Below, piece by piece: positions 18,225 through 45,413 of a stretch of 64,000 nucleotides of DNA (position 1 is the first letter of the stretch; each line of letters begins with the position of its first letter). This stretch comes from Acidimicrobiia bacterium (GTDB taxonomy: Bacteria; Actinomycetota; Acidimicrobiia; Spongiisociales; ZC4RG35). A model generated the notes under the pieces. It was not told where the DNA came from. It ran no database searches and saw only the letters and a list, made by a program, of their open reading frames with translations. Where the stretch lies: contig OZ244034.1 of assembly GCA_965215185.1 (NCBI GenBank), forward strand, positions 2,272,001 through 2,336,000, read 5' to 3'. The position numbers and the translations under genes were made by a program.

Positions 18225-18378
18225 ATTGTGTTGCTCCTCGTTTCCTGGGCCGGTGGTCCTCTGTGATTATGGCTAGGTTTGCTTGGCGCTGGTCCTGCAA
18301 ACCCTCGGTTACGACGGGGCGGCGCCTAAGCCGCGGTTACCATTCTCTTGCGTAGCAAACCCCACGGAGGAGTCTGTC

Positions 18379-25834: not shown

Positions 25835-25848
25835 AGTTTGAAACTCCT

Positions 25849-27704: not shown

Positions 27705-27770
27705 TCGCCCCTCAAACCTCTTGATTCGAACAACATCAAACAACCACGAAACCTCAGATATGGAGTCTCA

Positions 27771-29941: not shown

Positions 29942-31320
29942 GCGAACAGACCTTTGTCGGCATGCAGGTGGGAGGGATCAGTTTCATCGACGAGGGCATC
30001 GAGGAAACTCTCGACACCTTCGTGGAACTGGCAGGGGTGAACGCCATTTTCATCTCGGCCCTCTCATGGGCGCGGGGTAACGCCGGGCGCTCCGGCAGCG
30101 GCGACTACCCCGACCACGGCGGGCAGGAACCCGACAACCTGCAGGGCGGGGCTTTCTTCCCGCCCAATCCCAAGTACTACCACGGCACGTCCATCAAGGA
30201 CTTCACCGCCCCCGATCCCCTCTATGAGGGCTGGGACATCCTGGGCGACGTGATTCCCGCCGCCCGGGAAAGAGGCATGGAAGTCTTTCCCTACTACTGC
30301 GAGACCGCCCACGTCAATCCCAAGGCGCTCTGGCAACCGGGTTTCGCCCAGGTGCTGGAGATTGACCCGTGGGGCCGAAAGGCCAGCCGTCCATGTCTTT
30401 ACAACCCCGACTACCGGAACTGGTGGTTCGGGGTGATCGACAACTGGCTGAGCGAGTACGACCTGAGCGGGATGCTGTGGGGAATCGAGCGGGAAGACCC
30501 TCTGTCCTCGATGATCGTCAGCAACGAAGTACCCACGTGCTTCTGCGCCCACTGCCGCTCGGAAGCCCACCGCCGCAACATCGACGCCGGGCGGGCGGCC
30601 GAGGGGTATCGGAAGATCAGCGATTACCTCAGCGCAGTACGGGCTGGCTACCAGCCTCGCGACGGGAAGCTGATCACATTCCTGCGGCATCTGTTCGAGT
30701 ACCCCGAGGTCTCGCAGTGGCAGAAGCTGTGGTGGGACGGTCACAAGGATCTCTACCGGGAAATCTCCGGCCTGATCCGCTACTTCGGCGACGACTACCA
30801 GGTGGGCTTAGGCATCTGGCAGATGATCAATACCTTCAATCCGCTGCTGCGAGCGGCCCACGATCCCGCCGAGTACAAGCTGTACGCCGACTGGCTGAAG
30901 CCGGTGTTCTACAACGCACCGGGTGGCGCACGGTTCGCCAAATTCGTGACCAACCTGTGCCAGACCATCCTGGGCGATGCCAGTCCCGCAGAGTGGACAC
31001 CGATCCTCTACAAGATTCTCGGCCTGGACGAGGCGCCCTTCGAGGACCTGCCTCCCACCGGTTTCAGCCCCAAATATGTCGCCGATTTCACCCGCCGCTA
31101 CGTAGAAGCGGTGGGACCCGAGGTGGCTGTCTATCCCGGCATCGGGCTGGGAGTGGAGACTGTGGCCCGAGACATCTCTCCCGCCGACTGTGAGGCTATG
31201 GTCGAAGCCTCTTTCGAAGGCGGCGCCGAAGGTGTGATGATCTCTCGCAATTATTCGGAATTGACCCTCCCCAACTTGGCCGCGGTGGGAACCGCCCTAC
31301 GCCGCCTCGGAAAAATCTGA
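29938..31320 (+). CDS. Uncharacterised protein, probable glycoside-hydrolase-like TIM barrel
   Basis: ATGA-coupled in the operon. GMQVGGISFIDEG, PDHG, CLYNPDYR..W...YDLSG, CFCAHC and VYPGIG..GAEGVMISRNY resemble GHL10/DUF187-like barrels. Confidence 0.6.
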   Translation: MSEQTFVGMQVGGISFIDEGIEETLDTFVELAGVNAIFISALSWARGNAGRSGSGDYPDHGGQEPDNLQGGAFFPPNPKYYHGTSIKDFTAPDPLYEGWDILGDVIPAARERGMEVFPYYCETAHVNPKALWQPGFAQVLEIDPWGRKASRPCLYNPDYRNWWFGVIDNWLSEYDLSGMLWGIEREDPLSSMIVSNEVPTCFCAHCRSEAHRRNIDAGRAAEGYRKISDYLSAVRAGYQPRDGKLITFLRHLFEYPEVSQWQKLWWDGHKDLYREISGLIRYFGDDYQVGLGIWQMINTFNPLLRAAHDPAEYKLYADWLKPVFYNAPGGARFAKFVTNLCQTILGDASPAEWTPILYKILGLDEAPFEDLPPTGFSPKYVADFTRRYVEAVGPEVAVYPGIGLGVETVARDISPADCEAMVEASFEGGAEGVMISRNYSELTLPNLAAVGTALRRLGKI

Positions 31321-31328
31321 TCCGCAAC

Positions 31329-32591
31329 ATGAAAGGAACACAACCTGTGCGCACAATTCTCAAAGGCGGCGTCGTCGTAAATCTGGACGGCGGGCCCTCG
31401 GAGCAACAAGACCTGGTCATCGAAGGCGAGCAGATCGTCTCGGTAGGAGCAGTGCAAGCCCAGGCGGGCGACAACGTGGTGGATGTATCCGGCATGTACC
31501 TGCTGCCTGGACTGGTGAACTGCCACGTCCATCTGGGGTGGGATGGAACCCACGACCTGGAGGATCAGGCCAACGAATCACCGGCAGTTAATGCAATGAA
31601 GGCGGTGATGAACATCCACCGCACCCTGTCGGCCGGGGTCACCACCATTCGTGACCTGGGCATGAACAACGCCAACATCGACGCCAAGACCGCCATCGAC
31701 AACGGCTGGGCGCCGTGGATTCGCCTGTTCCCCAACGGACGCGCCATCTGCACCACCGGCGGGCACACCTGGTGGTGCTGCCGGGAAGCCGACGGGATCT
31801 ACGGAGTGCGCAAGGCCATCCGGGAGCAGTTCAAGGCTGGCGCCCAGTGGATCAAGATCATGGGATCGCACGAAGAAGTGCAGTTCACCACGGACGAATT
31901 GCGCGCCATGTGCGAAGAGGCCCACCAGAACGGGATGAAGGTCACCGCCCACGCCACTTTCGATGAAGCCATCTCGAGAGTAGTGGACGCCGGAGTGGAC
32001 TGCGTGGAGCACGGTGGGTCGATGACGCCGGAGACCATTCAGAAGATGGTGGACAAAGGCATTCCCATCGTCACCACCTTCTCGCCCTTGGTGCAGCAGG
32101 TCAAATTCGGCTTGGACTTCGGGATGACCGTCTCCGATGTGGAGCGGCGCAAGGATCAAATGGCCGACACGTCTCGGTTCGCCGGCAATGCGGCCGCCGC
32201 CCGGGCAGGAATTCCCATCGTGTTCGGCACCGACGCCGGCAGCCCGGTGGTCCCCCACTACGCCATCGCCGAGGAACTCAAGTTCATGGTGGAAATCGAC
32301 GTGTGCAAAGACAACCTGGACGCGCTCAACTCCATCACTCGCCGGGGCATCAAGCTCCTGGGTCTCGAAGACCAACTGGGCAGCCTGGAAGTGGGCAAGA
32401 CCGCTGACGTGGTGGCCGTTGGAGGCGATCCCTTGGCTTCTTTGGACCACATGAAGGACGTCAAGCGGGTCCTCGTGCGAGGACACATGGCGTTTTCCTC
32501 CGAAGGCGGCTACACCCAAACCGGTCGGGACGTCGAAGGCATTGGTACCCGTTGGGGACCCGGCCCTGACATCGGCTACCGGCGGGCCTAA
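31329..32591 (+). CDS. Metal-dependent amidohydrolase (Xaa-Pro dipeptidase/carboxypeptidase-like subtype)
   Basis: PGLVNCHVHL, GVTTIRDLG, IKIM, AHA, EHG and GTDAG. Confidence 0.88.
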   Translation: MKGTQPVRTILKGGVVVNLDGGPSEQQDLVIEGEQIVSVGAVQAQAGDNVVDVSGMYLLPGLVNCHVHLGWDGTHDLEDQANESPAVNAMKAVMNIHRTLSAGVTTIRDLGMNNANIDAKTAIDNGWAPWIRLFPNGRAICTTGGHTWWCCREADGIYGVRKAIREQFKAGAQWIKIMGSHEEVQFTTDELRAMCEEAHQNGMKVTAHATFDEAISRVVDAGVDCVEHGGSMTPETIQKMVDKGIPIVTTFSPLVQQVKFGLDFGMTVSDVERRKDQMADTSRFAGNAAAARAGIPIVFGTDAGSPVVPHYAIAEELKFMVEIDVCKDNLDALNSITRRGIKLLGLEDQLGSLEVGKTADVVAVGGDPLASLDHMKDVKRVLVRGHMAFSSEGGYTQTGRDVEGIGTRWGPGPDIGYRRA

Positions 32592-32629
32592 GAGACTGTT
32601 CGGACAAAGAGACGATCTAGAAGCAATAC

Positions 32630-34018
32630 ATGCTTGATCTGAGAATCGTCGGGGGCACGGTGGTGAGCGACGGACACTCCCGGCCGGCTGATGTCGGCGT
32701 GGAAAGCCAGCTCATCACCGAAGTCTCCCCTCCTGGCGGCCTCGGGGCGGCGCGGCGGGAGATCGACGCAACCGGATTGCTGGTGATTCCCGGCGCGGTG
32801 GACGCTCACTTTCACTGCCGGGCGCCCAGCCATCCTGAGCGGGCCACCTTCGCTTCCGAGTCGCGCGCGGCAGCTTCTTCGGGTATCACCACCCTGTTCG
32901 AAATGCCGATCTCCAACCCGCCCTGCAGCACCCCCGAGGCGTTCCAAGCCCGGCGGCAGTTGGGAGAGGCCGAGAGCCTGGTGGACTTCGCCCTCTATTC
33001 GGGTGCGGGTTTCACCGATCCGGCCCGGGCAGAGGCGATGGCCGAGTGCGGAGCGATCGGATTCAAGCTGTTCACCCACCAGCCCCCGGCCGAACGGCTG
33101 AACGAATTCGAGGGTTTGTGGGCGTCGGAGCCTGATCAGATCTACGACTGCCTGCGCACGGTAGCCGCCACCGGTCTTCGCTGCGCGACGCATGCCGAGA
33201 GCCAGCATCTCATCGAGCGTTTCCGGGTTGATCAGGACCGCTTCGGCCATCCCTCCCGGCCCTCATTGGTAGAGGCCGCGGCGGTGGGACTGGTGGCCAC
33301 AATTGCCCGGGACATCGGCTTTCCCGCCCATATCGTCCACATCACCTCCCGGTTGGCCACCGAAGAGGTCCAGGCCGCCCAGGCGTTGGGAGTGGACCTC
33401 TCCGCTGAGTCCTGCCCGCACTATCTGCTGTTGGACGATTCCCACATTCCCCGTTTCGGCAACTTCGTGAAAGTGGCTCCGCCTCTGCGCCCCGCCGAAG
33501 ATGTAGCTTTCCTGTGGGAGGCGCTGACCGACGGGTCGCTGTCGGTGGTGGCCTCCGATCACGCTCCCTTCACCCCCGAAGAGAAAGCGTCCGCCGATTT
33601 CGCTACCTCCGGGCAGGGAATCCCTTCCCTTGAGATGCTGGTGCCGGCCATGATCGACGCCGGTTTGACCGGGCGATTCCCCCTGGCTCGGGCGGTGGAG
33701 GTGATGACCGCCAACCCGGCCAAACTTTTCGGCATTTATCCTCGCAAGGGAACGATCTCACCCGGATCCGACGCCGACCTGGTACTGGTGGATCCCGACG
33801 GAAGGCTGACTGTTGATTCGGCCCGGTTCCTGAGCCGATCAGGCGGAAGCGGAAAAGCCTATGACGGAATGGACTTGACGGGTCGGGTAATCACCACCCT
33901 CTCCCGAGGCCGGACAGTTTTCAGCAACGGCAAGGTCATAGGAAACTCGGGTGGAAGTTTTGTCTCTCCAGCCGGTCCGCCCCTTCATGTGACAGAGACC
34001 CAAACCTCCTCGGTTTAG
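32630..34018 (+). CDS. Cyclic amidohydrolase (allantoinase/dihydroorotase family)
   Basis: PGAVDAHFH, GITTLFEMP, FKLF, HAE, HIVHIT, ESCPHYL, ASDHAP and NPAKLFG. Confidence 0.88.
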   Translation: MLDLRIVGGTVVSDGHSRPADVGVESQLITEVSPPGGLGAARREIDATGLLVIPGAVDAHFHCRAPSHPERATFASESRAAASSGITTLFEMPISNPPCSTPEAFQARRQLGEAESLVDFALYSGAGFTDPARAEAMAECGAIGFKLFTHQPPAERLNEFEGLWASEPDQIYDCLRTVAATGLRCATHAESQHLIERFRVDQDRFGHPSRPSLVEAAAVGLVATIARDIGFPAHIVHITSRLATEEVQAAQALGVDLSAESCPHYLLLDDSHIPRFGNFVKVAPPLRPAEDVAFLWEALTDGSLSVVASDHAPFTPEEKASADFATSGQGIPSLEMLVPAMIDAGLTGRFPLARAVEVMTANPAKLFGIYPRKGTISPGSDADLVLVDPDGRLTVDSARFLSRSGGSGKAYDGMDLTGRVITTLSRGRTVFSNGKVIGNSGGSFVSPAGPPLHVTETQTSSV

Positions 34019-34138
34019 GGTCCGCATCCACTTGGCCCCGGGGCGGTTCGGACCAATCCTTTCACACACCGTTGTCTAGCGTTGGATAGGCAGTTAGTCG
34101 ACAGGCACCAAACACCTGTTCACGGCGCACTCCACCAT

Positions 34139-35896
34139 GTGGCCCTGATGAAGCAACTCCAAGCCGACGCTTCCGGCACGGGCCTGGTAACCCTGACTTC
34201 AGGTGACAATTTCCTGGCTTCTCAGGAGTTGGGGGTTTCCCTGACCCGGCAGGGTCCGCTGTATGACTCGATAGCCCTGAGCGGCATCTACGACGCCATG
34301 GCCCTGGGTAACCATGACTTCGACCTCGGACCCGAGGTGACCGCCCGGTTTGTGGCCGGGTTTTCCCCACCGGTGACCTTCCTGTCCGCCAACGTGGACT
34401 TCTCGGGCGAACCCGACCTGCAGGCCCTGGTGGATCAAGGCCTGATCGCCGGTAGCACGGTTATAGAGACCGGCGGTGAACGGATCGGCGTGATCGGAGC
34501 GGTCACACCGTTGCTGCCCAACATCTCCACCCCTCGCAACGCAGTGGTGTCACCGGTGTTGCCGGCGGTGAAGGCGGCAGTCGAAAGCCTGACCGGCCAG
34601 GGAGTGAACAAGATCATCCTGGTCAGCCATCTCCAGGACGTCAACGAGGAAATCGAGTTGGTCGCAAGTCTCTCAGGCGTAGATATCGTGATCGCCGGAG
34701 GCGGGGACGACCTGCTCCGCAACGATGGGGATACCTGCCTCCCCGACGAAGAGGCTCTGTCGCCTTACCCGATCGAGGTGAAGGACGCCTCAGGCGCGAC
34801 GGTGCCGGTTATCACCGCTCCGGGTGGGTACCGCTGCATCGGGGAGTTGAACGTCACCTTCGATGGCGACGGCAACGTCACGGTGTTCGAGGGCCGCTCT
34901 ATAGGGGTTGGTTTCGATGTGGAACCCGATCCGACGGTCCAGGCCAACGTGATCGAACCTCTAACCCAGGCGGTGGGTCTCATCGACGCCGAGGTGATCG
35001 GCGCAAGCGAGGTCGACTTGGACGGGCGCCGTTCGGGAGTCCGCACCAGGGCCACCAACGAGGGCAATCTGCTGGCGGACACTCTGCGCGCCACAGCCAC
35101 CAACCTGGCCGATGACTTCGGGATCACGGCGGCGAATGTGGCCGTGCAGAACGGAGGCGGAATCCGCAACGACGCGGTTATCCCTGCGGGTGACATCACC
35201 ACCGGACACACCTGGGACATCGCTCCCTTCAGGAACTTCGTGGTGGTCGGCGAGGTTCCACGCGAAGTCTTCCATGTGCTGCTGGAGCAAGCAGTGGACC
35301 GGATACCGGGCGCCGGGGGTCAGTTCGCCCAGGTCTCGGGGTTCACTCTCACTTACGACCCGGCCGCTGCGGCCCGGGAGATAGCCCGGGACAGCAACTG
35401 CTCTCTGAGCGGCAACCCCGGCGAGCGAGTGCGCCGGGTGGTACTCGACGACGGCACGGTCATCGTCAGCGACGGCCAGGTGGTGCCGGGTGATCCGGTG
35501 ATGCTGGCCACCATCGATTTCCTGGCCAACGGCGGGGACTGCTACCCGCTGGGAGATATCGCCTTCACCAAGCTGGGCGTCAGCTACCAGCAGGCCTTGG
35601 CCAACTACATATCGATCGATCTGGGGGGAATGATCACCGCGGCGGCGTACCCGACCGACGGGGCTGGCCGGATTGTGGCTCTGGAAGCGGTGCCCGAACC
35701 GACCCCCGAGACTTTCGAGGTTACGGTTGCGGCGGGCGACTACCTGCGGAAGATCGCTATGACCCACCTCGGGGACGAGAACCGCTGGATGGAGATCTTC
35801 GATCTCAACAAAGGCGTGACCCAGGCCGACGGTGGGGCACTAACCAACCCCGACCTGATTCGTGTCGGCTGGGTGCTGAAGATACCCACCAACTAG
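34139..35896 (+). pseudogene. 5'-nucleotidase (metallophosphoesterase, 5'NT-C and LysM domains), 5'-truncated
   Basis: SGDNF, LGNHDFD, VSHLQ, QNGGGIRN, QVSG, DFLANGGD and a C-terminal LysM (VAAGDYLRKIA..NPDLIRVGWVLKIP). Homology starts abruptly at VALMKQ; no signal peptide and no first metal motif. Confidence 0.72.
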
Positions 35897-35918
35897 CGAA
35901 GACTTCCCGTCTCGCACG

Positions 35919-35960
35919 AGCGGGTGTCCCGGCCCCAACGGCCGGGACACCCGCTTTCTT
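35919..35960 (+). terminator. Rho-independent terminator hairpin
   Basis: 16-bp perfect stem AGCGGGTGTCCCGGCC-ccaac-GGCCGGGACACCCGCT followed by TTCTT, between convergent genes. Confidence 0.85.
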
Positions 35961-36086
35961 AGACCCCCGCAACCGTGTGGGTCTACCGATGCTGGGGCGA
36001 TTCCAGAGACTGTCTGGCGCAGGATCGATGCATGGCGGCATTCACTGCTTGGGTGACCTCAAGTCCCTCCACCGGGGCACTGTCAC

Positions 36087-37112
36087 CTAGAGTTTCAGAC
36101 CGCCCTTTCGCCAGGCTGTTATGTAGTTCATGCAGAACTCGTCCCTACCCTGCAGAACGTCCTCGGCCAGCCGGTAGGCCTCTGACTCCCGATCGGCTGC
36201 GAAGACTGCGGGGAGGGAGTTCATCACCGGATCGATAATGCCACTGTCTGCGCCAGCTTCAACCGTGAGATTGATGAAAGCGGTGTTCATCAACTTGCGC
36301 GCCGGTATCCCGAAGGAGACGTTGCTCATGCCGCCGGTGATGTGAATTTCGGGACCAAAACGGTTTCGTAGAGCACGGATGGCGTCCAGGGTATGCAAAC
36401 CGAAATTGCTGTCCACAGAAATGGGAAACACCAACGGGTCCACGAAGATGTTCGCTATCTCGATCCCCGCCGCAAGGGCTGCCTCCACCATACGGGAGGC
36501 GTTGTTGACCCGTTCAGAAGCGTCCGATGGCATGCCGTCCGAACCGGCGGCGGTGACGATGACCCGTGCTCCATACCTCGCGGCCAGATCTACCGCATCG
36601 GCCCGTTCCAAAGATGCCGAGTTGAGCAGCGGCCTGCTGTCTCCCAGTCCCCGGGCAGCAGCCAAACCGGTCTCTATGACGGTGATGTCGGAGGAGTCAA
36701 CCGAGATGGGAAGGGTGGTCAGCGACTTCACATAACCGACCAGCCACGCCATAGCCTGACGCTGCTCGGCGGTTTTGAGTGATATCTCGTCAACATTCAC
36801 ATCCAGGTAGTCAGCGCCGGCCCGTTGCTGGTCCATCACCACCCGCCGCAGGTACTCGTGGCCCACTTCCGCTTCGGCGCCCCCGGCCATGGCTGCCTCG
36901 ACAGCCAGTGCGATGTGCTTTATGCGTCCCTCGTCATAGGCCTGGCTTTGGCGCATGGTCTGCGATATAGCCAGAAGCCCCGGCTTGCCGTCCTCCGACG
37001 CGAAGGGGACCCCATCGACTCCCCCGCGAGTGGCAAACCGCTTGCCCTTTCGAAGAACTATCCGACTGGTGTGGACGTTTTCCCCGATAATCGTGTATCG
37101 CCCGGCGGTCAT
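36087..37112 (-). CDS. Methylcorrinoid:tetrahydrofolate methyltransferase (pterin-binding, AcsE/MT2-like)
   Basis: IIGEN, GADYLDVNVD, ISVDSS, LLNSAS, FVDPLVFPIS, GGMSNVSFGIPARK and GIIDP. ATGA overlap with the activator gene. Confidence 0.88.
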   Translation of the reverse strand: MTAGRYTIIGENVHTSRIVLRKGKRFATRGGVDGVPFASEDGKPGLLAISQTMRQSQAYDEGRIKHIALAVEAAMAGGAEAEVGHEYLRRVVMDQQRAGADYLDVNVDEISLKTAEQRQAMAWLVGYVKSLTTLPISVDSSDITVIETGLAAARGLGDSRPLLNSASLERADAVDLAARYGARVIVTAAGSDGMPSDASERVNNASRMVEAALAAGIEIANIFVDPLVFPISVDSNFGLHTLDAIRALRNRFGPEIHITGGMSNVSFGIPARKLMNTAFINLTVEAGADSGIIDPVMNSLPAVFAADRESEAYRLAEDVLQGRDEFCMNYITAWRKGGLKL

Positions 37113-38797
37113 GAGCTCACCAGTTGAGCCATCTGTTCCTGAGCGGAGAAGGTGGCGGGCATGGGTTTGAGTTGACAGCCCTCGACGAAAAGGTTGAAGA
37201 AATCCGGGGTGGTCTCCAACTCGATGTGGGTCACCCACTTGGTCAGTTCCTCCGCCCAGCGGCGCTTTTTAGTGGACAACAACAGAGCACGGGCCCCATC
37301 GACCGCCGCGTTGCCCACCTTGACCACCCGCTCCTGCGCTACCGGCGCAATCAGCCCGATCTCGATGGCGTTGCCGACGTCGAGATAGGTTGCGAAACCT
37401 CCCGCCAGATACAGCCGGTCGATGTCGGCCGGTTGCACCCCGGCGTTGCGCATCACGATGTACTGTCCACAGTAGTTGGCGGCTTTGGCTTGGGCGAGGT
37501 TGCTGGCATCCTCCCGCGAGAAGGTGATACCCCGATCCGGCACCACATCGATGGAGAAACGTTTGCGGTCATCGGTGAATACCCCTCTCTCGGACATCAG
37601 ACCCTTTTGACGGAGGTCGGCCAAGAGATCAACCAGTCCCGAGCCGCAGATCCCCACCGCAGGTTCCCCGCCGATGGTCTCATAGGCAGAGGCTGTTCCG
37701 TCCGATGCCAGCGTGATCGATTCGATGGCGCCGTCGTAAGCACGCATCCCATAGGTGACCAGGCCCCCCTCGAATGCGGGACCAGCTGGGCAGGAAGCCG
37801 CCCACATCCGGCCTTCATGGCTGAGGACCACCTCGGTGTTGGTGCCCATATCGACCAGCATCTCGGTTCGCCCCTCCGCTCCGAGCCGGACCGTCTCCAC
37901 ACATGCCACCGCATCAGCGCCGACGTGGCTAGCCACCAGCGGGATTCCATAGGCCTTGGCTTGGCGGTTGGCGCGCAATCCCAGCGTCCGGGTGTCGGCA
38001 ACCAAGGCCGTGTGGGGACGAAGACCGGCTAGGTATTCGTGTTCCGTGAGGGACTTGTACGGCATCTCTCCGATGCTCTGCACGCTCAACCCGAACAGGA
38101 TGTCACGCATGGTGGAGTTTCCCGCCACCACGATCTCGTAGATATGGGGCGGGCGCCTGCGACGACCCGCCCGCTGGGCCAGATCCCGAGTGCCCTGGTT
38201 GATCGCAGCCACCACCGCCATGCGCAGTTCGTTCGCCACGCCGGGGCGGGCTTCGTAGGAGATCCGACGCATCACGTCGCTGCCGCCGAACTGCTGGGGA
38301 TTCTCGAAGCTGGCCACTCCCAAGGTGACTCCAGACTCCAGGTCCACCAACTCCATGACCACGGTGGTGGTACCGAGATCGATCGCCAAACCCAATATGG
38401 CGCCTCGGTACCTGTCGACCACCGTGTCTCCGTACTTGACCTCGTCACCTGCTCGGGTCACAGCCGGATGAAACTCCATGGGCCGCTCCTGGCCGAAGTG
38501 GCCGCCTTCGAGGATTCTCGGACGTCTCCGCAGTGGAGCGAATCTGATGGAGGGGCCGTCCCGCACCACCAGAGCCTGGCAGGCCAGGCGGTAGTTGCCC
38601 CGGAGGAACCGCTCGGTTTCGGTGCGTTCCACCAAGGCTTCCATCCCCTCGGTGACCTCCACCACACATTCGTGGCACTCCCCGTTGCGCAGACAGGAGG
38701 TGGGTACCTCAACCTCCAGTTCGTCGGCGTAGTCGAAGATGGTCTTACCGGCAAGGAGGGGACAGTTATTGTCGCCGTGGGAAACGGTGCTCATCAA
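37109..38797 (-). CDS. ATP-dependent reductive activator of corrinoid proteins (RACo/ASKHA, 2Fe-2S plus DUF4445)
   Basis: SCLRNGECHEC..RLACQ ferredoxin; DLGTTT, NPQQFGGSDVMRRI, DMGTNTE, AGPAFEG, GICGSG, LAGGF and VGNAA. Confidence 0.92.
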   Translation of the reverse strand: MMSTVSHGDNNCPLLAGKTIFDYADELEVEVPTSCLRNGECHECVVEVTEGMEALVERTETERFLRGNYRLACQALVVRDGPSIRFAPLRRRPRILEGGHFGQERPMEFHPAVTRAGDEVKYGDTVVDRYRGAILGLAIDLGTTTVVMELVDLESGVTLGVASFENPQQFGGSDVMRRISYEARPGVANELRMAVVAAINQGTRDLAQRAGRRRRPPHIYEIVVAGNSTMRDILFGLSVQSIGEMPYKSLTEHEYLAGLRPHTALVADTRTLGLRANRQAKAYGIPLVASHVGADAVACVETVRLGAEGRTEMLVDMGTNTEVVLSHEGRMWAASCPAGPAFEGGLVTYGMRAYDGAIESITLASDGTASAYETIGGEPAVGICGSGLVDLLADLRQKGLMSERGVFTDDRKRFSIDVVPDRGITFSREDASNLAQAKAANYCGQYIVMRNAGVQPADIDRLYLAGGFATYLDVGNAIEIGLIAPVAQERVVKVGNAAVDGARALLLSTKKRRWAEELTKWVTHIELETTPDFFNLFVEGCQLKPMPATFSAQEQMAQLVSS

Positions 38798-39129
38798 TCT
38801 CGGCTTTCCCCGGTGCGACCTCTCCTCCGCTGCTCGGCGTCTCGCTTGATCCTGACGATCTTGTCTCGGGTCCGCTGCTCAGCGCGGGGATTGGACTCCC
38901 AAGCGCTTCGGTAGTCGAAGGTGCCGTCGTGGCCACAAGTGAATTCACCAGGATCATCAGGTACGGGGAGCTGATTGCGACACCGGAACAGCGCGGTGCA
39001 GACATCGTGACGGTTGCGGTACGGGCATCGCGTCAGGGACGATTCCTCGGCGTGGGCAACTATGTCGGAAAAGATGGCGGCCATACGATCAAGCCGCTCT
39101 TGGAAAGATTGCATATCCAAGTCGGACAT
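38794..39129 (-). CDS. Small Cys-rich hypothetical protein inside the corrinoid operon
   Basis: Tightly packed (overlaps the activator start). RCPYRNRHDVCTALFRCRNQ...TCGHD supplies 4 Cys plus His. Confidence 0.75.
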   Translation of the reverse strand: MSDLDMQSFQERLDRMAAIFSDIVAHAEESSLTRCPYRNRHDVCTALFRCRNQLPVPDDPGEFTCGHDGTFDYRSAWESNPRAEQRTRDKIVRIKRDAEQRRRGRTGESRD

Positions 39130-39138
39130 GTGTTCTGC

Positions 39139-39888
39139 TCAGCGGACCTCTACGGCTAGTTTCTTCGCCAACTCCACACAGGCAAGCGCGTCTTTCCCGT
39201 ATCCGTCGGCGCCCACGTCCTTGCCGAACTCAGGAGTAACAGGCGCGCCCCCCACCATGAATCGCACCGAGTCCCTAAGGCCGACGTCCTTGAAAGCCTC
39301 CACCGTTTTGGCCATGTTGGGCATGGTGGTGGTGAGTAACGCAGACATGCCGATCACGTGAGCGTTGTGTTCTCTAACCGCTTCGACGAACTCGGCAGGT
39401 GCGGTGTTGACCCCCAGATCTATTACTTTGAACCCCCCGCCCCTCAGCAACATGATGCAAAGGTTCTTGCCGATGTCGTGCAAATCGCCCTGCACGGTAC
39501 CCATGATCACCGTCCCAACGGGTTCCACTCCCGACGCGGCCAGTATCGGCTCAACATGGGCCATTCCTGCTTTCATCGCCCTGGCGGAGATGAGCACTTC
39601 CGGAACGAACACGTATCCCTCCCGGAATTTGATCCCGACTATCCCCATCCCGGCGATGAGCCCGTCGTCCATGATCTCCATTGCACTCACCCCGCTGTCG
39701 AGGGCTTGTCTGGTGAGCCGTTCCACTGTCGAGGCGTCCCCGTCAATTAGAGCGGCGGCGATGTCCTGCATGTCCGGTGAGCAGCGGCTGAACAGGGTTA
39801 TGTTTCTTTCGATCTCTTCGGGTCGTTCTAGGAACTCCTCGATCTCGTCGCGGATGAATGGGTTGACAATGTCAGACAGTTCAGGCAT
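39139..39888 (-). CDS. Corrinoid (B12-binding) methyl-carrier protein
   Basis: Cap domain (GLIAGMGIVG..FVPEVL), GTVQGDLHDIGKN (DxHxxG), GMSALLTTT and MVGGAPV. Confidence 0.93.
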   Translation of the reverse strand: MPELSDIVNPFIRDEIEEFLERPEEIERNITLFSRCSPDMQDIAAALIDGDASTVERLTRQALDSGVSAMEIMDDGLIAGMGIVGIKFREGYVFVPEVLISARAMKAGMAHVEPILAASGVEPVGTVIMGTVQGDLHDIGKNLCIMLLRGGGFKVIDLGVNTAPAEFVEAVREHNAHVIGMSALLTTTMPNMAKTVEAFKDVGLRDSVRFMVGGAPVTPEFGKDVGADGYGKDALACVELAKKLAVEVR

Positions 39889-39954
39889 AACAGGAAAGGG
39901 TTGGGGTCGTGGTTGGGTAAAGCGGTGTGGTATGTCTCATGATTCTTTCGGGTT

Positions 39955-41013
39955 TCAACTCTCTGCGCCGTTGGGGGGCGGATTGTGGACGACGAGCCGA
40001 CCGTCGGGTCGGTGGGCGTTGGAGTAGTCGCGGGCCGAGTCGGTCAAGGCCATGAGCACCTCCATCTTGGTCCCAAGCGGCACCGAGCCTTCGGGAGCGA
40101 GCCCATTGACCCCTGCTTCAAGCACTCCCATACATGCCTGGTAGGTGTCTTCATAGGTGCCGCTGAACAGGGTGGTGGGGTTGTTGATGTTACCCATCAG
40201 GGACATGCGGTCTCCGGTGATCTCTTTGGCGACGTAGGGATCGACCTGCGACTCGAAGTGAAAGCAGTCCCAGCCCGCTTCGGCGAAATAGTCGATCCGG
40301 TCAGTGGTCTCCCCGCAACAGTGGAAAATGCTCGGCCCGCCGATCTCAACTGTTACTTGTTTGTGCATCTCCAGTAAGAAATCCCGATAAGTGTCGGGGC
40401 TCACCAGTTCCCGGTTGGCGTGGTCGGCCCACATGATCGCGTCGGCGCCCGCCTCAAGTTGAGCGTGGGCTGACATCATGCAGGCGGGAAGCATCACCTC
40501 GAGGTAGCGGCGAATCTTGTCAGGGTCGAGAATCGTATCCATGAGGTAGTTTTCGATCCCCACCAAGTGGTATCCGACCGACCAGGGGCCATACACCTTC
40601 CCCACGATCCCGACATCGGGATAACGCTTGCGAAGCAATTTGATCGCTCCGAGCACTGCCTGGAATGTTTGCCGCTTGAGGTAATCGGAGGGAATCTTGA
40701 AGTCTTCGGGATCGGCGAGCACATGAGCGCTGGTGGCCGGCCAGTTGTCCACCGTTCCCCACCAAGTGGCCGCGTCCAAAGCGTCTGCTTCGAGCTGAGA
40801 ATGGAACACCGGCATGATCGTGTCGAGGCCGAGTTCTTCATGGGCGGTTGCCGCCAGGCGAGCCATCTTCTCGGCGTCAAGGTGGGCTTCCGGAAACCAC
40901 GCATCGGTCATTTCCATCGCTTCCAGAGTCACCACCGAACTGAGGGTCATGGCGGGCACCTTATCGACTCGTCCGCCGTACAACGCGGAGAGGAAACGGC
41001 GGCGAGGAGTCAT
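39955..41013 (-). CDS. MtaA/CmuA-family methyltransferase (URO-D fold)
   Basis: MTPRRRFLSAL, FPEAHLDAEKMARLA, GPWS, AQLEAGAD, FHCCG and MGNINNP. The start may lie further upstream (e.g. GTG 41091). Confidence 0.87.
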   Translation of the reverse strand: MTPRRRFLSALYGGRVDKVPAMTLSSVVTLEAMEMTDAWFPEAHLDAEKMARLAATAHEELGLDTIMPVFHSQLEADALDAATWWGTVDNWPATSAHVLADPEDFKIPSDYLKRQTFQAVLGAIKLLRKRYPDVGIVGKVYGPWSVGYHLVGIENYLMDTILDPDKIRRYLEVMLPACMMSAHAQLEAGADAIMWADHANRELVSPDTYRDFLLEMHKQVTVEIGGPSIFHCCGETTDRIDYFAEAGWDCFHFESQVDPYVAKEITGDRMSLMGNINNPTTLFSGTYEDTYQACMGVLEAGVNGLAPEGSVPLGTKMEVLMALTDSARDYSNAHRPDGRLVVHNPPPNGAES

Positions 41014-41279
41014 CCACTCGCCGGTCAGGCGGGTGAAATTTTCACCCTTGCGCTTTATTATTGCAGGAGAGATGGTTGATCCTTTCCGCACACTAGCCTC
41101 GGCAGGGGAGGATAAGGTTAAGAAACTTTTCTCTAAATAGTACAGCCAGTGCGCGGCCGAACGGCATTCGGGGAGCAGAAGAATCAAAGATTCGACCGCA
41201 CCCTGTGTTATGGCAGCCTACATCCCAAGTAGTATCGACTCGGAGAAGGGCCTGCATAAAAGACAAGGAGCACCTGACT

Positions 41280-42443
41280 ATGACACATGTCCCAGTAAAC
41301 CACATCACCTCGGACGCCGAGCGTGCCCGGCGATACGCCGCCTTACGAGAGGCCATGGCCGGCGCCGGCATGGATGCCTTCGTGATCTGTAGCCGCGGCG
41401 ACGAGTTCGTGCGGGGACGCGTCCAGTATGTCAGCGACATTTTTCAGTGGGCAGGACGCGGTTTTGTGGTTCTTCCCATGACGGGAGAGGCCACCTTCGT
41501 GACCGATCCCCTGTGGGGTACCGGGTTCGCTATGCAGGGACGGTGGTTGAACGATTACCGCCAGCCGGACGACGCCGGCACGGAGATCGGAGCGATCCTC
41601 TCCGATCATGGGCTGGCCAGCGGGACCATCGGAATAGTGGGACTGGCCGACATAACTTCTGTGGCCGATTACAACAGCATGCGAGCGGCCCTTCCCAACG
41701 CCAATCTGGTGGACGCCACCGACCTGTTCGACGACGTGCGGATCATCAAGAGCCAAGACGAGATCGACACCACCATCCACACCGGAAACATCATTCGCCG
41801 AGTGTTCAGTGCCTTGGAGGCAGAGATCCGGCCCGGAGTCCAGGAAGTGGACGTGCTGTCAGAGGCCCATCGCCTCGCTCGCCAGTTGGGCTGCCTAGAG
41901 GGGATCGCCCTGATGGGTCGCGCTCCTTTCGCCTGCTTCGGACCGGGAACCAACGGCGTGATCGAGAGAGACGACATCATCGTGATCGACTTGGAGTGGG
42001 GAGGCCCCATGGGCTATTGGGTCGAAGTTCGCCGGGTGTACAGCTTCAATCCTCCCACCGCCGTGCAGAAGGCTTTCTGGGAGATGCGAGTGGAAAGCTT
42101 CGAAGCTTGCGTGCAGGCCATGAAGGCCGGTGAGTCCTCTGACACGGTTCTCGACGCCCGCGATCGGGTCTACGACGCCTGGGGGTATTCGGCGATGGGC
42201 GCCAACTCCTACACCGCCCACGGCATCGGGGTCGACTCCCTGGAGCCACCCTGGGTACCCGGAAAAGAGCGGACCATGCAAGAGAACATGATCATCAACC
42301 TCCATCCGGCGATCGGTTTCTCGGACCCCGCGGTGGGGGCGGCGCTGGGCGGAATCAGCATCGCCGACAATGTCCTGGTCGGAGCCGACGGCGGAACCCG
42401 GATGGTCGATCAGACCGACGAATGGATCGTGCTCGACGCCTGA
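41280..42443 (+). CDS. M24 pita-bread-fold hydrolase with non-canonical metal site; paralog 2
   Basis: Shares CSRGDEFVRGRVQYVSDIFQWAG, IDLEWGGP.GYWVEVRR and EPPWVPGKER with 24668..25834. ATG follows AAGGAG. Confidence 0.82.
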   Translation: MTHVPVNHITSDAERARRYAALREAMAGAGMDAFVICSRGDEFVRGRVQYVSDIFQWAGRGFVVLPMTGEATFVTDPLWGTGFAMQGRWLNDYRQPDDAGTEIGAILSDHGLASGTIGIVGLADITSVADYNSMRAALPNANLVDATDLFDDVRIIKSQDEIDTTIHTGNIIRRVFSALEAEIRPGVQEVDVLSEAHRLARQLGCLEGIALMGRAPFACFGPGTNGVIERDDIIVIDLEWGGPMGYWVEVRRVYSFNPPTAVQKAFWEMRVESFEACVQAMKAGESSDTVLDARDRVYDAWGYSAMGANSYTAHGIGVDSLEPPWVPGKERTMQENMIINLHPAIGFSDPAVGAALGGISIADNVLVGADGGTRMVDQTDEWIVLDA

Positions 42444-42475
42444 GCGCGGCTGACCGAGAAGCATTTCAAACTACA

Positions 42476-42504
42476 GAAGGCCGGGGCTCAGCGCCCCGGC
42501 CTTC
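42476..42504. terminator. GC-rich hairpin, probable terminator
   Basis: GAAGGCCGGGGC-tcagc-GCCCCGGCCTTC between convergent genes. Confidence 0.7.
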
Positions 42505-42542
42505 CCAATTCTTGCCGAACGCCTGCGCCCAGCTACAGAAAT

Positions 42543-42910
42543 TCAGGCAATCGGATTCACCCAACGCAGTCCGGGAAACCGAGCAAAGTCCCAGTCAGCG
42601 GAGTACGACTCGGCGCCGTGCTCGATGGCTAACACCGCAAAATGAGCATCGGGAGTCAGATTCCCTCCGGTGCCTAGTGGCCCAAGTAAATCTCCCAACA
42701 CGAAGAGATGCCGCCTGGTCGGATGGACGACGGTGACGCATGGCTGTTCCAACCAGGACTCCACCACATCCAAGGATTCTTGAATTCCCATAGGATTTGG
42801 GAAGACCCGTGGCGAGGTTGACAGACGAAGAAAAGCTAGCAACACCGTCCAACTAAAGGCCACGGTCTCCACTCCCGACAGTGCTTCCGTCAACCAGGAA
42901 GCCGCTCTGA
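42543..42910 (-). pseudogene. vapC: VapC PIN-domain toxin, 5'-truncated, no antitoxin
   Basis: WLTEALSG..FLRLSTSPRVF, GNLTPDAHFAVLAIEHG and SADWDFARFPGLRWVNP. The N-terminal xxDxN strand is missing; the remnant abuts the acyl-CoA dehydrogenase stop. Confidence 0.8.
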
Positions 42911-42913
42911 CCG

Positions 42914-44077
42914 CTAGTCGACCACCACTCGCCCGCTGATCAGACCCCTAGCGATCACCATGCGCATGATGTCGTTGGTGCCCTCTCCGATCACCAATAG
43001 GGGGGCATCGCGGTACAGACGCTCGATGTCCAGTTCTTGGCTGTAGCCCATTCCACCGTGGATCCGCATCGAATCCAAGGCATTGGTGCAGGCCACTTCC
43101 GAAGCGAAATACTTGGCCATCCCCGCCTCCATGTCGACACGCTTACCAAGATCGGCCTGGGAAGCCGCCCACCAGACTAGGAGCCTCGCCGCCTGCGTGT
43201 TGGTGGCCATCTCCGCCAGCTTCAACTGGATGGCCTGGAAACCTGAGATCTTGCGACCGAAGGCCTGGCGGGCGTTGGCATAGGCCAGAGCCTGGTTGTA
43301 GGCCTCCTGGGCAATCCCCACCGACCGGGCGGCGATGTTAATTCTTCCGATCTCGAGGCCGCTCATCACCTGCTTGAATCCCCTGCCCTCCACTCCCCCC
43401 ACCAGGTTCTCGACGGGTACCCGAACGTTGTCAAGCTGCACCTCGCAACTCTCGGTGCCCTTGTAACCCAGCTTGGGCAGATCCCGGCTCACCTCGAATC
43501 CGGGAGTTCCTTTCTCGACCAGGATCAGACTCAAGCCCCGATGCGCCGGTTGGGCGTCGGGATTGGTCTTCACCAGCACCGGCAGGGGGTCAGCGTAACG
43601 GGCATTGGTTATCCACAGCTTCGAACCACGGATCACATAGTGGTCCCCATCCCGGACTGCCCGGGTCTTGATGCCTTGCAGGTCGGTGCCGGCGTCAGGC
43701 TCGGTAAGGGCAATCCCGGTACGACGTTCCCCCGACGCCAGATCGGGCAGGAAGCGGTTCTTCTGTTCTTCGGTGCCGTGGCGGGCGATGATGAAACAGG
43801 AAAGGGAGTGGCTGCCCAGTATTCCCGCAATCCCCATCCAGCTTCGGGAGATCTCCTCGAAAACCAACGCGAGAGAAACAAAGTCGGCGCCCATCCCCCC
43901 GTACTCCTCGGGCACCGTGATGCCGAAGAGGCCCATCTGCTTCATCGATTCGACTATCTCGGTGGGGTATCTACCGGAGTGCTCCCATTCCTTCACCACT
44001 GGTCTGATCTCGTCGTCCACGAAACGACGCAATGTCTGTCGGAATAACTGGTGCTCGGGGCTGAGCTCGAAGTCCAA
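42914..44077 (-). CDS. Acyl-CoA dehydrogenase
   Basis: ALTEPDAGTD, GSKLWITN, RQAFG, IHGGMGY and IGEGTNDI. Confidence 0.93.
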   Translation of the reverse strand: MDFELSPEHQLFRQTLRRFVDDEIRPVVKEWEHSGRYPTEIVESMKQMGLFGITVPEEYGGMGADFVSLALVFEEISRSWMGIAGILGSHSLSCFIIARHGTEEQKNRFLPDLASGERRTGIALTEPDAGTDLQGIKTRAVRDGDHYVIRGSKLWITNARYADPLPVLVKTNPDAQPAHRGLSLILVEKGTPGFEVSRDLPKLGYKGTESCEVQLDNVRVPVENLVGGVEGRGFKQVMSGLEIGRINIAARSVGIAQEAYNQALAYANARQAFGRKISGFQAIQLKLAEMATNTQAARLLVWWAASQADLGKRVDMEAGMAKYFASEVACTNALDSMRIHGGMGYSQELDIERLYRDAPLLVIGEGTNDIMRMVIARGLISGRVVVD

Positions 44078-44171
44078 GGCAATGCTCCCGTCTTAGGTTT
44101 TGTGATTCTGGCTTGTCAGTGGCGCCGGATGTGTGACGTCAACCATCTCTCATCCTAGGTCCGGGCGGGTC

Positions 44172-44456
44172 TCAATCCTCCTGCCCCGGCGCTTTCCCAA
44201 AGGCTCCGCCTGCCGAAAGTTCCTCCACCCGGGCATCCGAATAGCTCAAGAATTCCGTCACAATCGGCTCGCAGTTCTCCCTCGCCTCGGCGCCGCCCGG
44301 TAGGTCAACTCGGAAGGGTCTCCCTCGTACCGGACTGGCAGGCGACTCGATCTCTCCCCACAGATGAATGCACCGTCTTGACCCGCAGTTGGCGGTGCAG
44401 GGTGAGCGGAGCCTCCAGAGCTTGGGGAAAATGCGTATGTCCTCCAGAGGACGCAT
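44172..44456 (-). pseudogene. CaiB/BaiF CoA-transferase remnant (start joined to end)
   Basis: MRPLEDIRI (typical start, RBS upstream) is followed within about 290 bp by a typical end: WGEIESPASPVR...EFLSYSDARVEELSAGGAFG. Confidence 0.6.
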
Positions 44457-44669
44457 GGTCAAGACCCCTGACAGTTGCGCTGTTGCGAATGTCGGTTCGC
44501 GCATCGAACCACGAATCATCATGGGTATGTACCCGTGGCGTCGGGAAAGTCGGCTAACCACACCCCTTATGAGTGACATGATCTTTGGTGGGCCAGGTTT
44601 TGCGACCAGCGCCGGTTCCAACCAGACTCTTCACTCGATGACGACGATCCTCTCCGCCCCGGGTCGGGA

Positions 44670-45413
44670 ATGAGTCTGGGCAAAGCCCCCGAACCGGTCG
44701 CCGCCCGGATCACCGCCCGACTCGATCATGTCGCAGTGGCGGTCCCAGCCGCTGCAGAAGCCCTCGTGCGCTGGCGGGATACCTTGGGAGCGGGGTTTGC
44801 CGGGGGCACCCGGCGGGACGGATTCATAACCAGCCAGTGGCGTTATTGCAACGGCCCCAAGCTGGAGCTGATAGAACCCGACCCCGACTATCCAGCCGAA
44901 GATGTCTATCTAGCCGGCTTTTTGGGGAAGTTCGGCGCCCGTATCCACCATGTCACCCTCAAGGTCCCCAACTTGGAGCACACGGTGGACACCTTACGTT
45001 GCGCCGCGATCGAACCGATCGATATCAACCTGGAGCCCCTCTTTCACGAGGCTTTCATACGACCCCGGGATGGAGGGGGATTGCTCATCCAACTGTTGTG
45101 GACGGAGGTGGCTGATCACGAGTGGGAGAACGATCTGGATCTGGAAGTGATCCAGCCTCCTGACCATGGCGCCCACTTGGCGGCGGTGCGGCTGCGCCAT
45201 CCCGACCAAGAGAAAGCCGCCCGGTTTTGGACCATCTTGGGAGCAGACGTGACCCGGGAGCCACCGGGGCTGGTCGCCCGCTGGCCGGACTCGCCATTGG
45301 CGGTTCAGGTCGAACCGGGCCAGCCGGCCGGACCGGATTGCTTGCTCTTCGAAAACACCCCCTCGCTGCCACCCCACCCCCGGCTCGGACCGAAGGTTCA
45401 GGGAGAGGACTGA
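44670..45413 (+). CDS. VOC/glyoxalase-family protein (methylmalonyl-CoA epimerase-like)
   Basis: LDHVAVAV, KLELIEP, IHHVTLKV and EAFIRPRDGGGLLIQL. Confidence 0.82.
   Translation: MSLGKAPEPVAARITARLDHVAVAVPAAAEALVRWRDTLGAGFAGGTRRDGFITSQWRYCNGPKLELIEPDPDYPAEDVYLAGFLGKFGARIHHVTLKVPNLEHTVDTLRCAAIEPIDINLEPLFHEAFIRPRDGGGLLIQLLWTEVADHEWENDLDLEVIQPPDHGAHLAAVRLRHPDQEKAARFWTILGADVTREPPGLVARWPDSPLAVQVEPGQPAGPDCLLFENTPSLPPHPRLGPKVQGED

Follow-up and report, generated by a model that had tools for sequence, protein, structure and literature searches.

What does a complete set of corrinoid methyl-transfer genes do in an actinobacterium, which methylated compound might it serve, and does the M24-type gene that stands divergently beside it belong to the same system? 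These questions are raised by a locus in the window, a term used here for the whole 64,000-nt stretch analysed, which is part of one 3.12-Mb contig of an Acidimicrobiia bacterium. Five tightly packed minus-strand genes occupy positions 36087–41091 and encode, in this order, a candidate substrate-side methyltransferase (MT1), a corrinoid carrier protein, a small protein, a RACo-type activase and a pterin-binding methyltransferase (MT2), as judged from the open reading frame (ORF) list, Pfam and NCBIfam. An earlier sequence-only reading of this DNA had proposed a complete MT1/corrinoid/MT2/activase set in an actinobacterium, next to a divergent M24 gene: all six genes lie where it placed them, the Pfam and NCBIfam names agree with its descriptions, domain matches are found for all four components, and the closest loci are titled Acidimicrobiia or Candidatus Spongiisociaceae. 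What the locus holds is a genuine corrinoid methyl-transfer operon, complete and conserved, whose sub-type is undescribed. Two marks set it apart, the altered metal site of its MtaA-derived MT1 and a new accessory protein with four cysteines; most likely it acts as a demethylase that feeds folate. A literature search that did not cover supplements found no description of this operon type and no papers on 'Spongiisocius', and the gene tables of PMC12478193 and of the Kountz and Balskus preprint (bioRxiv 10.1101/2023.07.31.551370) might list relatives; for Limnocylindria, the sole passage found, in the accessible text of PMC11264602, lists generic methylamine-type genes.

The first of these marks is carried by MT1, an MtaA-like methyltransferase of the UroD superfamily encoded at 39955–41091 on the minus strand (378 aa, public gene call P0003; the ORF is extendable to 41187), which matches Pfam URO-D at 190.7 bits. 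The best solved relative of this METHYLTRANSFERASE is MtaA of Methanosarcina mazei (4ay7, 164.5 bits, residues 27–355); at an E value of 1e-5, only MtaA and one UroD were matched among the solved chains, and no other methyltransferase chain. Placement in the aryl O-demethylase MT I branch (OdmB/VdmB/MtvB) or with CdmB finds no support among the solved chains, a comparison in which no named OdmB/VdmB sequence was aligned. Scores fall just under the family cut-offs (228.8 against 235.4 for TIGR01463, 243.5 against 244 for PRK06252 and 237 against 400 for MtaA_Meth); a Desulfosporosinus relative clears the first two with 282.6 and 297.4. A quick tree of 76 rows was built after the exclusion of eight loci that had stops in the matched stretch and of others whose matches were short. 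In it, the 34 Acidimicrobiia sequences group with the 26 of Chloroflexota type (100% support, long branch), and five Bacillota sequences (Moorella, Desulfosporosinus, Thermoanaerobacterium) are sister to this clade. CmuA lies extremely far away, as does the divergent second UroD of the Desulfosporosinus cluster.

Alignment to 4ay7, from which all positions given here derive, retains His257 and Cys259 of the zinc motif and sets Gly335 at the third cysteine ligand, so that the site reads H257-C258-C259 ... P333-E334-G335 in place of the H-x-C ... C arrangement that we take to be canonical for the MtaA/CmuA family. The pattern HCCG...PEGS is present in 14 of 15 aligned Acidimicrobiia and Chloroflexota-type sequences, the fifteenth (P0083) being gapped at the motif. 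The four other relatives in this 19-sequence alignment keep PEC, Moorella and other outgroups show HICG...PEC as does MtaA, and a second marine UroD clade, ∼40–44% identical to MT1, is likewise HICG...PEC. Judged from these alignments, the canonical HxC...C zinc site appears to be remodelled in the clade formed by the Acidimicrobiia and Chloroflexota-type sequences. Compared with MtaA itself, the methylcobamide:coenzyme M methyltransferase of Methanosarcina (4AY7/4AY8), MT1 conserves the motif histidine and first cysteine, whereas it has glycine for the third zinc cysteine and an extra adjacent cysteine, scores under the family cut-offs and is partnered by a folate methyltransferase rather than by a methanogenic pathway. 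The Moorella homolog is listed among 'solitary mtaA' genes, for which a role in methanol metabolism was not confirmed by transcriptomics according to the accessible text of PMC13391211.

The second mark is the small protein of 111 aa encoded at 38794–39129 on the minus strand, which has no Pfam or NCBIfam match. It displays the pattern C-x8-C-x5-C-x14/15-C-x-H followed by a basic C-terminal helix, and the four cysteines and the histidine are invariant in 38 of 38 sequences. A metagenome scan with the alignment of this protein recovered 172 relatives, and 80 loci were kept: among loci with room, the corrinoid gene stands immediately upstream of the small ORF in 69 of 70 and RACo immediately downstream of it in 58 of 61, a UroD gene at ≥40% identity is present in 37 of 37 and an MT2 in 21 of 37. 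In most of these loci (among L125, L129 and L133–L195) the UroD gene is of the second clade, whose zinc motif is canonical; together with the constant corrinoid and RACo neighbours, this identifies the small protein as a fixed accessory of the corrinoid-protein/activase module, whatever the type of MT1. It is probably a metal-binding accessory of that pair. The small ORF is absent from all 30 Chloroflexota-type loci; a 137-aa ORF in L048, considered as a counterpart, was rejected, as it shows no similarity and reads like the antisense of the corrinoid gene. Structure prediction is of limited use here: the modelled fold has a mean pLDDT of 67 and a pTM of 0.31, with the cysteine region poorly modelled, the ESM Atlas returned only unnamed clusters, and a predicted complex of RACo, corrinoid protein and small protein reached a median of 0.37, against 0.77 for a control in which RACo was replaced.

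The remaining components are more conventional. The corrinoid (B12) carrier at 39139–39888 (minus strand) consists of cap and Rossmann domains (PF02310, 93.7 bits; PF02607, 76.6 bits) and contains the motif GDLHDIG (DxHxxG), invariant in 21 sequences; it is MtgC-like in NCBIfam at 215 bits, under the cut-off of 370, and resembles the solved chains 1y80 (the best, 206 bits) and 4jgi. RACo, an ATP-dependent reductive activase whose ORF spans 37109–38797 on the minus strand (the part is listed as 37109–38794), combines an N-terminal [2Fe-2S] ferredoxin with middle and ASKHA domains (Fer2, Raco_middle, RACo_C_ter; PF14574, 230.5 bits; PF17651, 132.1 bits; PF00111, 33.5 bits). It is AcsV-like at 292.7 bits, under the cut-off of 800, and residues C34, C40, C43 and C72 of its ferredoxin domain are invariant in 21 sequences. 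The translations show the stop codon of the small ORF overlapping the ATG of RACo, and the stop of RACo overlaps, as ATGA, an ATG at 37112 that is the likely start of MT2. The latter, a methyl-corrinoid:tetrahydrofolate methyltransferase (minus-strand ORF 36087–37238; 341 aa from the likely start), matches PF00809 at 83.5 bits and PRK07535 at 198.1 bits, under the cut-off of 259; its best solved relatives are 4o0q/4o1e/4o1f (113.8 bits), ahead of the acetogen MeTr (90) and MetH (∼65). An insertion of ∼60 aa near its N-terminus was estimated by eye from the translation, with no alignment. The structures 4O1E and 4O1F hold CH3-H4F and H4F and served as the MTII template in PMC13222342, according to its accessible text. 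The locus thus has the corrinoid protein, the pterin MT2 and the Fe-S ATP-dependent activase that define multi-component corrinoid methyltransferase systems.

How might these parts act together? RACo, via its [2Fe-2S] domain and ATP, would reduce the cobalt of the corrinoid protein from inactive Co(II) to Co(I), with the small four-Cys protein serving as a metal-binding accessory to this pair. The MtaA-like UroD-family enzyme would be the substrate-specific MT1, in which zinc held by His257, Cys258/259 and probably Glu334 would polarise the methyl–heteroatom bond of the substrate; Co(I) would take the methyl group to give CH3-Co(III), and MT2 would hand it to tetrahydrofolate (THF). The CH3-THF formed might then be oxidised by a MetF2-like reductase of another corrinoid island in the genome, or be used there for methionine. 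Taken as a whole, the reading of the operon as a four-component corrinoid demethylase plus one new accessory protein, feeding folate, with genes that are horizontally shared and with the M24 gene belonging to a different operon, is considered reasonably probable.

Among the closest known systems are the four-component O-demethylases of acetogens and Desulfitobacterium (MT I, corrinoid protein, MT II, activase) and the Cdm chloromethane system, which have the same logic and part list: the operon MT2 is nearest to the MT II chains 4o0q/4o1e/4o1f, the corrinoid protein to 1y80 and 4jgi, and both systems have a RACo/RamA-type activase. The operon differs in its MT1, which is MtaA-like rather than of the OdmB/VdmB/CdmB kind (at E 1e-5, the solved chains matched include none of that branch), in its host, which has a heme-copper oxidase, in the extra four-Cys protein and in its non-aromatic context. 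SCMT-like proteins are reported to be ∼17% identical to OdmB/VdmB in the accessible text of the Kountz and Balskus preprint (bioRxiv 10.1101/2023.07.31.551370). There, type 1 mlp clusters are described with two or three Mlp paralogs, Mlp2 and Mlp3 at the least, and no folate methyltransferase; the operon, with one UroD gene and a folate methyltransferase, is not of this type. The MtgBCDE/RamA/MetF2 system (PMC12478193) offers a parallel in an oxygen-respiring marine bacterium, with pterin methyltransferase, corrinoid protein and RamA-type activase; as far as the accessible text of that paper shows, Mtg relies on an MttB-family MT1 and a PF02574 homocysteine module, whereas the operon has a UroD-family MT1, no such module and the small Cys4 protein.

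CmuA and CmuB of Methylorubrum extorquens CM4 likewise combine an aerobic host, an MtaA/CmuA-family domain, a corrinoid and a pterin methyltransferase feeding folate; CmuA fuses methyltransferase and corrinoid domains in 617 aa, whereas the operon genes are separate. Could the operon then be a methyl halide dehalogenase of the Cmu kind, in which CmuA has been divided between two genes? Its part list (MtaA/CmuA-family methyltransferase, corrinoid protein, pterin methyltransferase) mirrors CmuA plus CmuB, and methyl halides are produced in marine settings. However, the comparison with CmuA and Mec drawn in the sequence-only reading turns out to be remote: CM4 CmuA is 24.4% identical to MT1 (E 1e-6) and lies extremely far from it in the tree, CdmB, which acts on haloalkanes, is a zinc-independent member of the O-demethylase-related branch (PMC13222342, accessible text), and the sugar-type neighbours and solute transporters are ill-suited to a gaseous substrate. 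Both this explanation and a methyl halide as the substrate are regarded as highly improbable.

How widely is the operon distributed, and how did it come to be in this genome? Altogether 79 loci from species genomes were examined, of which 37 are Acidimicrobiia-type and 30 Chloroflexota-type. All five genes occur in the same order in 34 of the 37 Acidimicrobiia loci, and the other three (L011, L029, L042) are cut by contig ends before RACo or MT2. A sample of the order comprised 151 genomes, including the window's own genome (G000), its own family (f1) and a sister family (f10). A UroD gene at 82–88% identity is present in 17 of 18 f10 genomes and in one f11 genome, and in none of the 19 other f1 genomes; three f10 genomes carry two UroD paralogs, at ∼87% and ∼40% identity. 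These paralogs, and the joining of the corrinoid–small protein–RACo module to the second UroD clade, fit interchangeable substrate-specific MT1s. Between the window's genome and f10, UroD is 82–88% and M24b, the divergent M24 protein, 74–92% identical; the ATP synthase beta subunit of an f10 genome is 88–100% identical within f10, 78–86% to the other f1 genomes and 74% to the window's genome. Such figures point to a probable horizontal sharing of the operon and M24 genes between sponge-symbiont lineages.

Clues to the substrate come from the genes that surround the operon in relatives. At the Chloroflexota-type loci the UroD and corrinoid genes face MT2 and RACo on the opposite strand in 21 of 30, a GFO/IDH/MocA dehydrogenase lies directly upstream in 20 and a zinc-dependent alcohol dehydrogenase (Zn-ADH) is found in 16. 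Further recurrent neighbours are enolase-superfamily sugar-acid dehydratases, a short-chain dehydrogenase/reductase (SDR), a LacI regulator, a gluconolactonase-like gene and a CUT2-type binding protein; the best NCBIfam names of these neighbours, all far under cut-off, are galactonate/talarate dehydratase, IolG, IolM and rhizopine binding protein. In locus L045 a methylenetetrahydrofolate reductase (MTHFR) gene with a C-terminal DUF5981 is inserted between MT2 and RACo. Among the 22 f10 loci, a gene for a 373-aa protein (unk373) and a Zn-ADH stand beside the operon in 10, a PTE-family lactonase in nine and an SDR in five; in L040, unk373, Zn-ADH, PTE lactonase and SDR precede the corrinoid operon on one strand, with ends overlapping or abutting. 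The Zn-ADHs of the two phyla are 49–53% identical. In Desulfosporosinus metallidurans (L076:6333–13904) the cluster contains a CdaR-type regulator, a glycerate kinase, a divergent UroD, an MtaA-like UroD that passes the TIGR01463 cut-off, an MFS transporter, a pterin methyltransferase and a corrinoid protein, which hints at a methylated hydroxy-acid substrate in the Bacillota relatives. Taken together, the neighbours favour, without proving, a methylated substrate of the polyol, sugar or hydroxy-acid type, a methoxy compound being the simplest case. A non-aromatic methoxy compound, such as an O-methylated sugar, cyclitol or hydroxy-acid, is plausible as the substrate, albeit short of being probable. 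As a separate observation, unk373 (L040:5803–6924 and nine other f10 loci) is a conserved, cytosolic, Cys-rich protein with DPCGSGG and CxYCxxC motifs, for which no match was found in Pfam, NCBIfam or solved chains.

A sulfur-bound methyl group is a different answer to the same question. The operon would then still act as a demethylase, on a thioether or sulfonium such as dimethylsulfoniopropionate (DMSP), methylmercaptopropionate or a methylthio-hydroxy-acid, in the manner of the methanogen MtsA/MtpA, but passing the methyl group to folate where those enzymes use coenzyme M. DMSP is abundant in sponges, and the enzyme falls in the soluble coenzyme M methyltransferase branch (MtaA, 164.5 bits) rather than in the aryl O-demethylase branch; for related clusters, Kountz and Balskus propose methyl-sulfur or methyl-selenide roles in the accessible part of their preprint (bioRxiv 10.1101/2023.07.31.551370). 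Yet it is precisely in this clade that the thiol-binding HxC...C site departs from the canonical form retained by relatives, and the neighbours are sugar, polyol or lactone enzymes rather than sulfur-handling genes, a rhodanese gene lying upstream only in locus L037. An S-methyl substrate is accordingly judged rather unlikely.

Does the methyl group in fact travel towards folate? Several points weigh against the reading of the operon as a folate-feeding demethylase. Corrinoid transfers are reversible, and the direction proposed leans on gene neighbourhoods seen in other phyla; MtaA, the closest relative to have been characterised, has a thiol as its methyl acceptor; the zinc ligands are assigned by alignment; and the case for horizontal transfer uses one housekeeping control, ATP synthase beta. 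Three of the 30 Chloroflexota-type loci have a UroD gene with no corrinoid protein, MT2 or RACo within 10 kb, and 11 or 12 of the 22 f10 loci are devoid of the partners described above. No orthologs of Zn-ADH, PTE or unk373 were found in the window's genome (the best matches are 32–33%, with none for unk373), so that the sugar-type context is borrowed from relatives 62–88% identical. Finally, the 20 sampled genomes that match UroD strongly all lack MetH (0 of 18 in f10 have it, nor do G000 and G123), and six operon-bearing genomes among them (G032, G052, G080, G101, G108 and G129) showed no MetH, full-length MetE or PF02574 gene.

The last of these points are also those that speak for the reverse direction, in which the operon would be a split B12-dependent methionine synthase or thiol methylase: MT2 would load the corrinoid from CH3-THF, and the MtaA-like enzyme would pass the methyl group on to a thiol, homocysteine or another. 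MtaA, the solved protein nearest to it, is itself a methylcobamide:thiol methyltransferase, and the absence of MetH from all 20 genomes with a strong UroD match compares with its presence in 12 of 19 f1 genomes that lack the operon. Full-length MetE was not found in the f10 genomes; its presence in family f4 is seen in two unpublished genomes, G004 and G016. In the window's genome MetE gave no match, and the only two Pterin_bind matches are both corrinoid-system MT2s, which means that neither FolP nor MetH is present; the 1173-aa protein that resembles MetH by length is an IcmF-like fusion of B12-binding, MeaB GTPase and mutase domains (L099:2036–5557, that is, G000:C1:2475036–2478557).

The methionine synthase function is, however, plausibly covered outside the window, since a second corrinoid island of the same genome (G000:C1:318097–338690; L097, L098) matches the MtgB/C/D/E-RamA-MetF2 system in predicted gene content. 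It encodes a corrinoid protein, a pterin methyltransferase, a RACo, an MttB-family protein (742 bits) and an MTHFR-like protein, and is flanked by dimethylglycine-dehydrogenase-like genes, ETF, carnitine-type BKACE/3HCDH and an OpuAC betaine ABC transporter. Beside it, at 337.8 kb, lies the genome's only PF02574 gene, which encodes a stand-alone homocysteine S-methyltransferase. In Ruegeria pomeroyi such an arrangement is genetically required for glycine betaine demethylation and methionine synthesis (PMC12478193, accessible text). A stand-alone PF02574 gene is also present in 11 of 18 f10 genomes, and of the seven f1 genomes (of 19) that lack both MetH and the operon, five have one; the operon itself has no PF02574 homocysteine-binding module. 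Among five operon-bearing Chloroflexota genomes, three encode a full-length MetH (1612–1667 bits), in a fourth it is split into adjacent pieces, and the fifth has none. MT2 is nearer to solved MT II-type chains (113.8 bits) than to MetH (∼65), the third, thiol-activating cysteine ligand of MT1 is lost, three f10 genomes carry the second UroD paralog at ∼40% identity, the Rfam scan found no SAM or B12 riboswitch, and the neighbours are catabolic genes, transporters and LacI or CdaR regulators. Moreover, the anti-correlation with MetH amounts to about three lineages, not 20 independent cases. The sequence-only reading had itself raised a split methionine synthase as an alternative; examined here, this alternative is weakened by the separate Mtg-type island and by the full MetH in three of five operon-bearing Chloroflexota, and it is considered improbable. 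The demethylase direction, a B12-dependent route from some methyl donor into folate that would be distinct from the methionine synthase of the genome, is retained as the best reading of the gene content.

In the genome as a whole, MT1 is the sole URO-D family match, with no match to HemE; a CobS gene is present with no CbiC match, from which corrinoids are probably salvaged; and this gene complement suggests that folate precursors, corrinoids and perhaps heme are obtained from outside. The genome also encodes subunit I of a heme-copper oxidase (517 bits). Corrinoid methyl-transfer systems are textbook matter for anaerobes, and the sequence-only reading had described them as best known from there. 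That view has become dated: a working corrinoid system in aerobic marine bacteria, MtgBCD, was shown only recently, in 2025 (PMC12478193, accessible text), and such an island is also found in this genome.

Three features would, on confirmation, be new biochemistry: an MtaA-type enzyme with a rebuilt metal site, a conserved four-Cys accessory always encoded between corrinoid protein and activase, and possibly a non-aromatic methoxy substrate. A more specific proposal, put forward tentatively and as a possibility only, is that the operon is the first corrinoid-dependent aliphatic methyl-ether demethylase: MtaA-derived, with its zinc site rebuilt (Cys-Cys-His-Glu) for an ether oxygen in place of a thiol, acting on methylated sugars, cyclitols or methoxy-acids for example, equipped with a new Cys4 subunit for the corrinoid-protein/activase pair, horizontally shared in sponge symbionts and widespread in soil Chloroflexota. 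It would represent an oxygen-independent alternative to P450 sugar demethylases. Given the presence of the operon in 17 of 18 genomes of one sponge-symbiont family, its apparent sharing with another lineage and the relatives in soil Chloroflexota, a sizeable unrecognised sink for methylated organic matter, in sponges as well as in soils, is possible.

Does the M24 gene belong to this system? M24b, encoded on the plus strand at 41205–42443 (Peptidase_M24 PF00557, 77 bits; Creatinase_N PF01321, 50.7 bits), is divergent from the operon across a gap of 113 bp. Its best solved relatives are prolidases, at 59–66 bits, and it is indeed as atypical as the sequence-only reading had noticed: at the metal-ligand positions of a solved prolidase, whose five-ligand numbering we take to be that of the P. 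furiosus enzyme, D, E, H, H, A replace D, D, H, E, E, so that three of five are changed (D>E, E>H, E>A), and the ligand set departs from that of an M24B prolidase or Xaa-Pro peptidase. That reading further suggested that the M24 hydrolase frees the methylated substrate and that its paralog links the operon to the cluster at 20–34 kb. The divergent arrangement is kept in 15 loci, both genes are near-universal in the sampled f10 genomes (UroD in 17 of 18, M24b in 16 of 18) and pieces of both occur in contigs of the same RNA libraries. But M24b adjoins the operon in only 15 of 37 Acidimicrobiia loci (L009–L022, L075), all from the window's own sub-clade, and a branch with 79% SH-aLRT separates the 13 of these that entered the quick tree from the rest; in the remaining 22 loci no M24 gene lies within 10 kb, and the Chloroflexota-type loci gave no M24 match.

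The orthologs of M24b in the 16 f10 genomes (74–92% identity) are far from the corrinoid operon, and co-occurrence inside one family reflects shared ancestry rather than independent evidence. In G087 and G042, both of the sister family, M24b is more than 1 Mb away and heads a co-directional row of epimerase, aminotransferase, 2-hydroxyacid dehydrogenase, an unknown 510-aa protein and two amidohydrolases (G087:C1 ∼2383700–2392400; G042:C1 ∼209000–217700), which matches window positions 26772–34018 at 70–92% identity. It follows that M24b belongs with the 26.7–34 kb cluster, and, given its adjacency in 15 of 37 loci only and its place in a different operon in the sister family, that a coupling of M24 to the corrinoid operon is not supported. 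As an explanation of the locus, the supply of substrate by M24b is very unlikely. M24b is probably a bystander outside the corrinoid system: the operon was set between the 26.7–34 kb cluster and M24b by rearrangement in the window's genus, and the result specific to the window is a negative one, the M24 pairing being a local rearrangement. The seven-gene row headed by M24b looks like an amide or peptide catabolic operon; its members include a GntC-like aminotransferase and amidohydrolases resembling a Caulobacter-type Xaa-Pro dipeptidase and an allantoinase/hydantoinase. The paralog M24a (24668–26077, 57% identical to M24b) has an isochorismatase-family gene and a Zn-ADH as neighbours. Neither M24a nor M24b qualified as a DddP-type DMSP lyase or a creatinase: prolidases rank first, DddP is not matched, and creatinase appears only for the paralog, at 22 bits.

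As to expression, no Rfam match at gathering score, SAM and B12 riboswitches included, was found in the window, the sole match in 40800–41500 being a snoRNA at chance level, and a promoter and terminator scan of 35800–42900 yielded sites no more numerous than in shuffles. Contigs from two RNA libraries of one study hold pieces 96.8–98.3% identical to the corrinoid/UroD junction at 39478–40127 including the intergenic gap, UroD, the small protein/corrinoid junction, M24b and the upstream nucleotidase; several bins of 33000–45000 are without coverage. These pieces are compatible with transcription in a close relative, DNA in such libraries being possible as well. Across window positions 18283–46000, many genes are 74–92% identical to those of G087 and G042, and this region may be a mosaic island of horizontally acquired sponge-niche genes.

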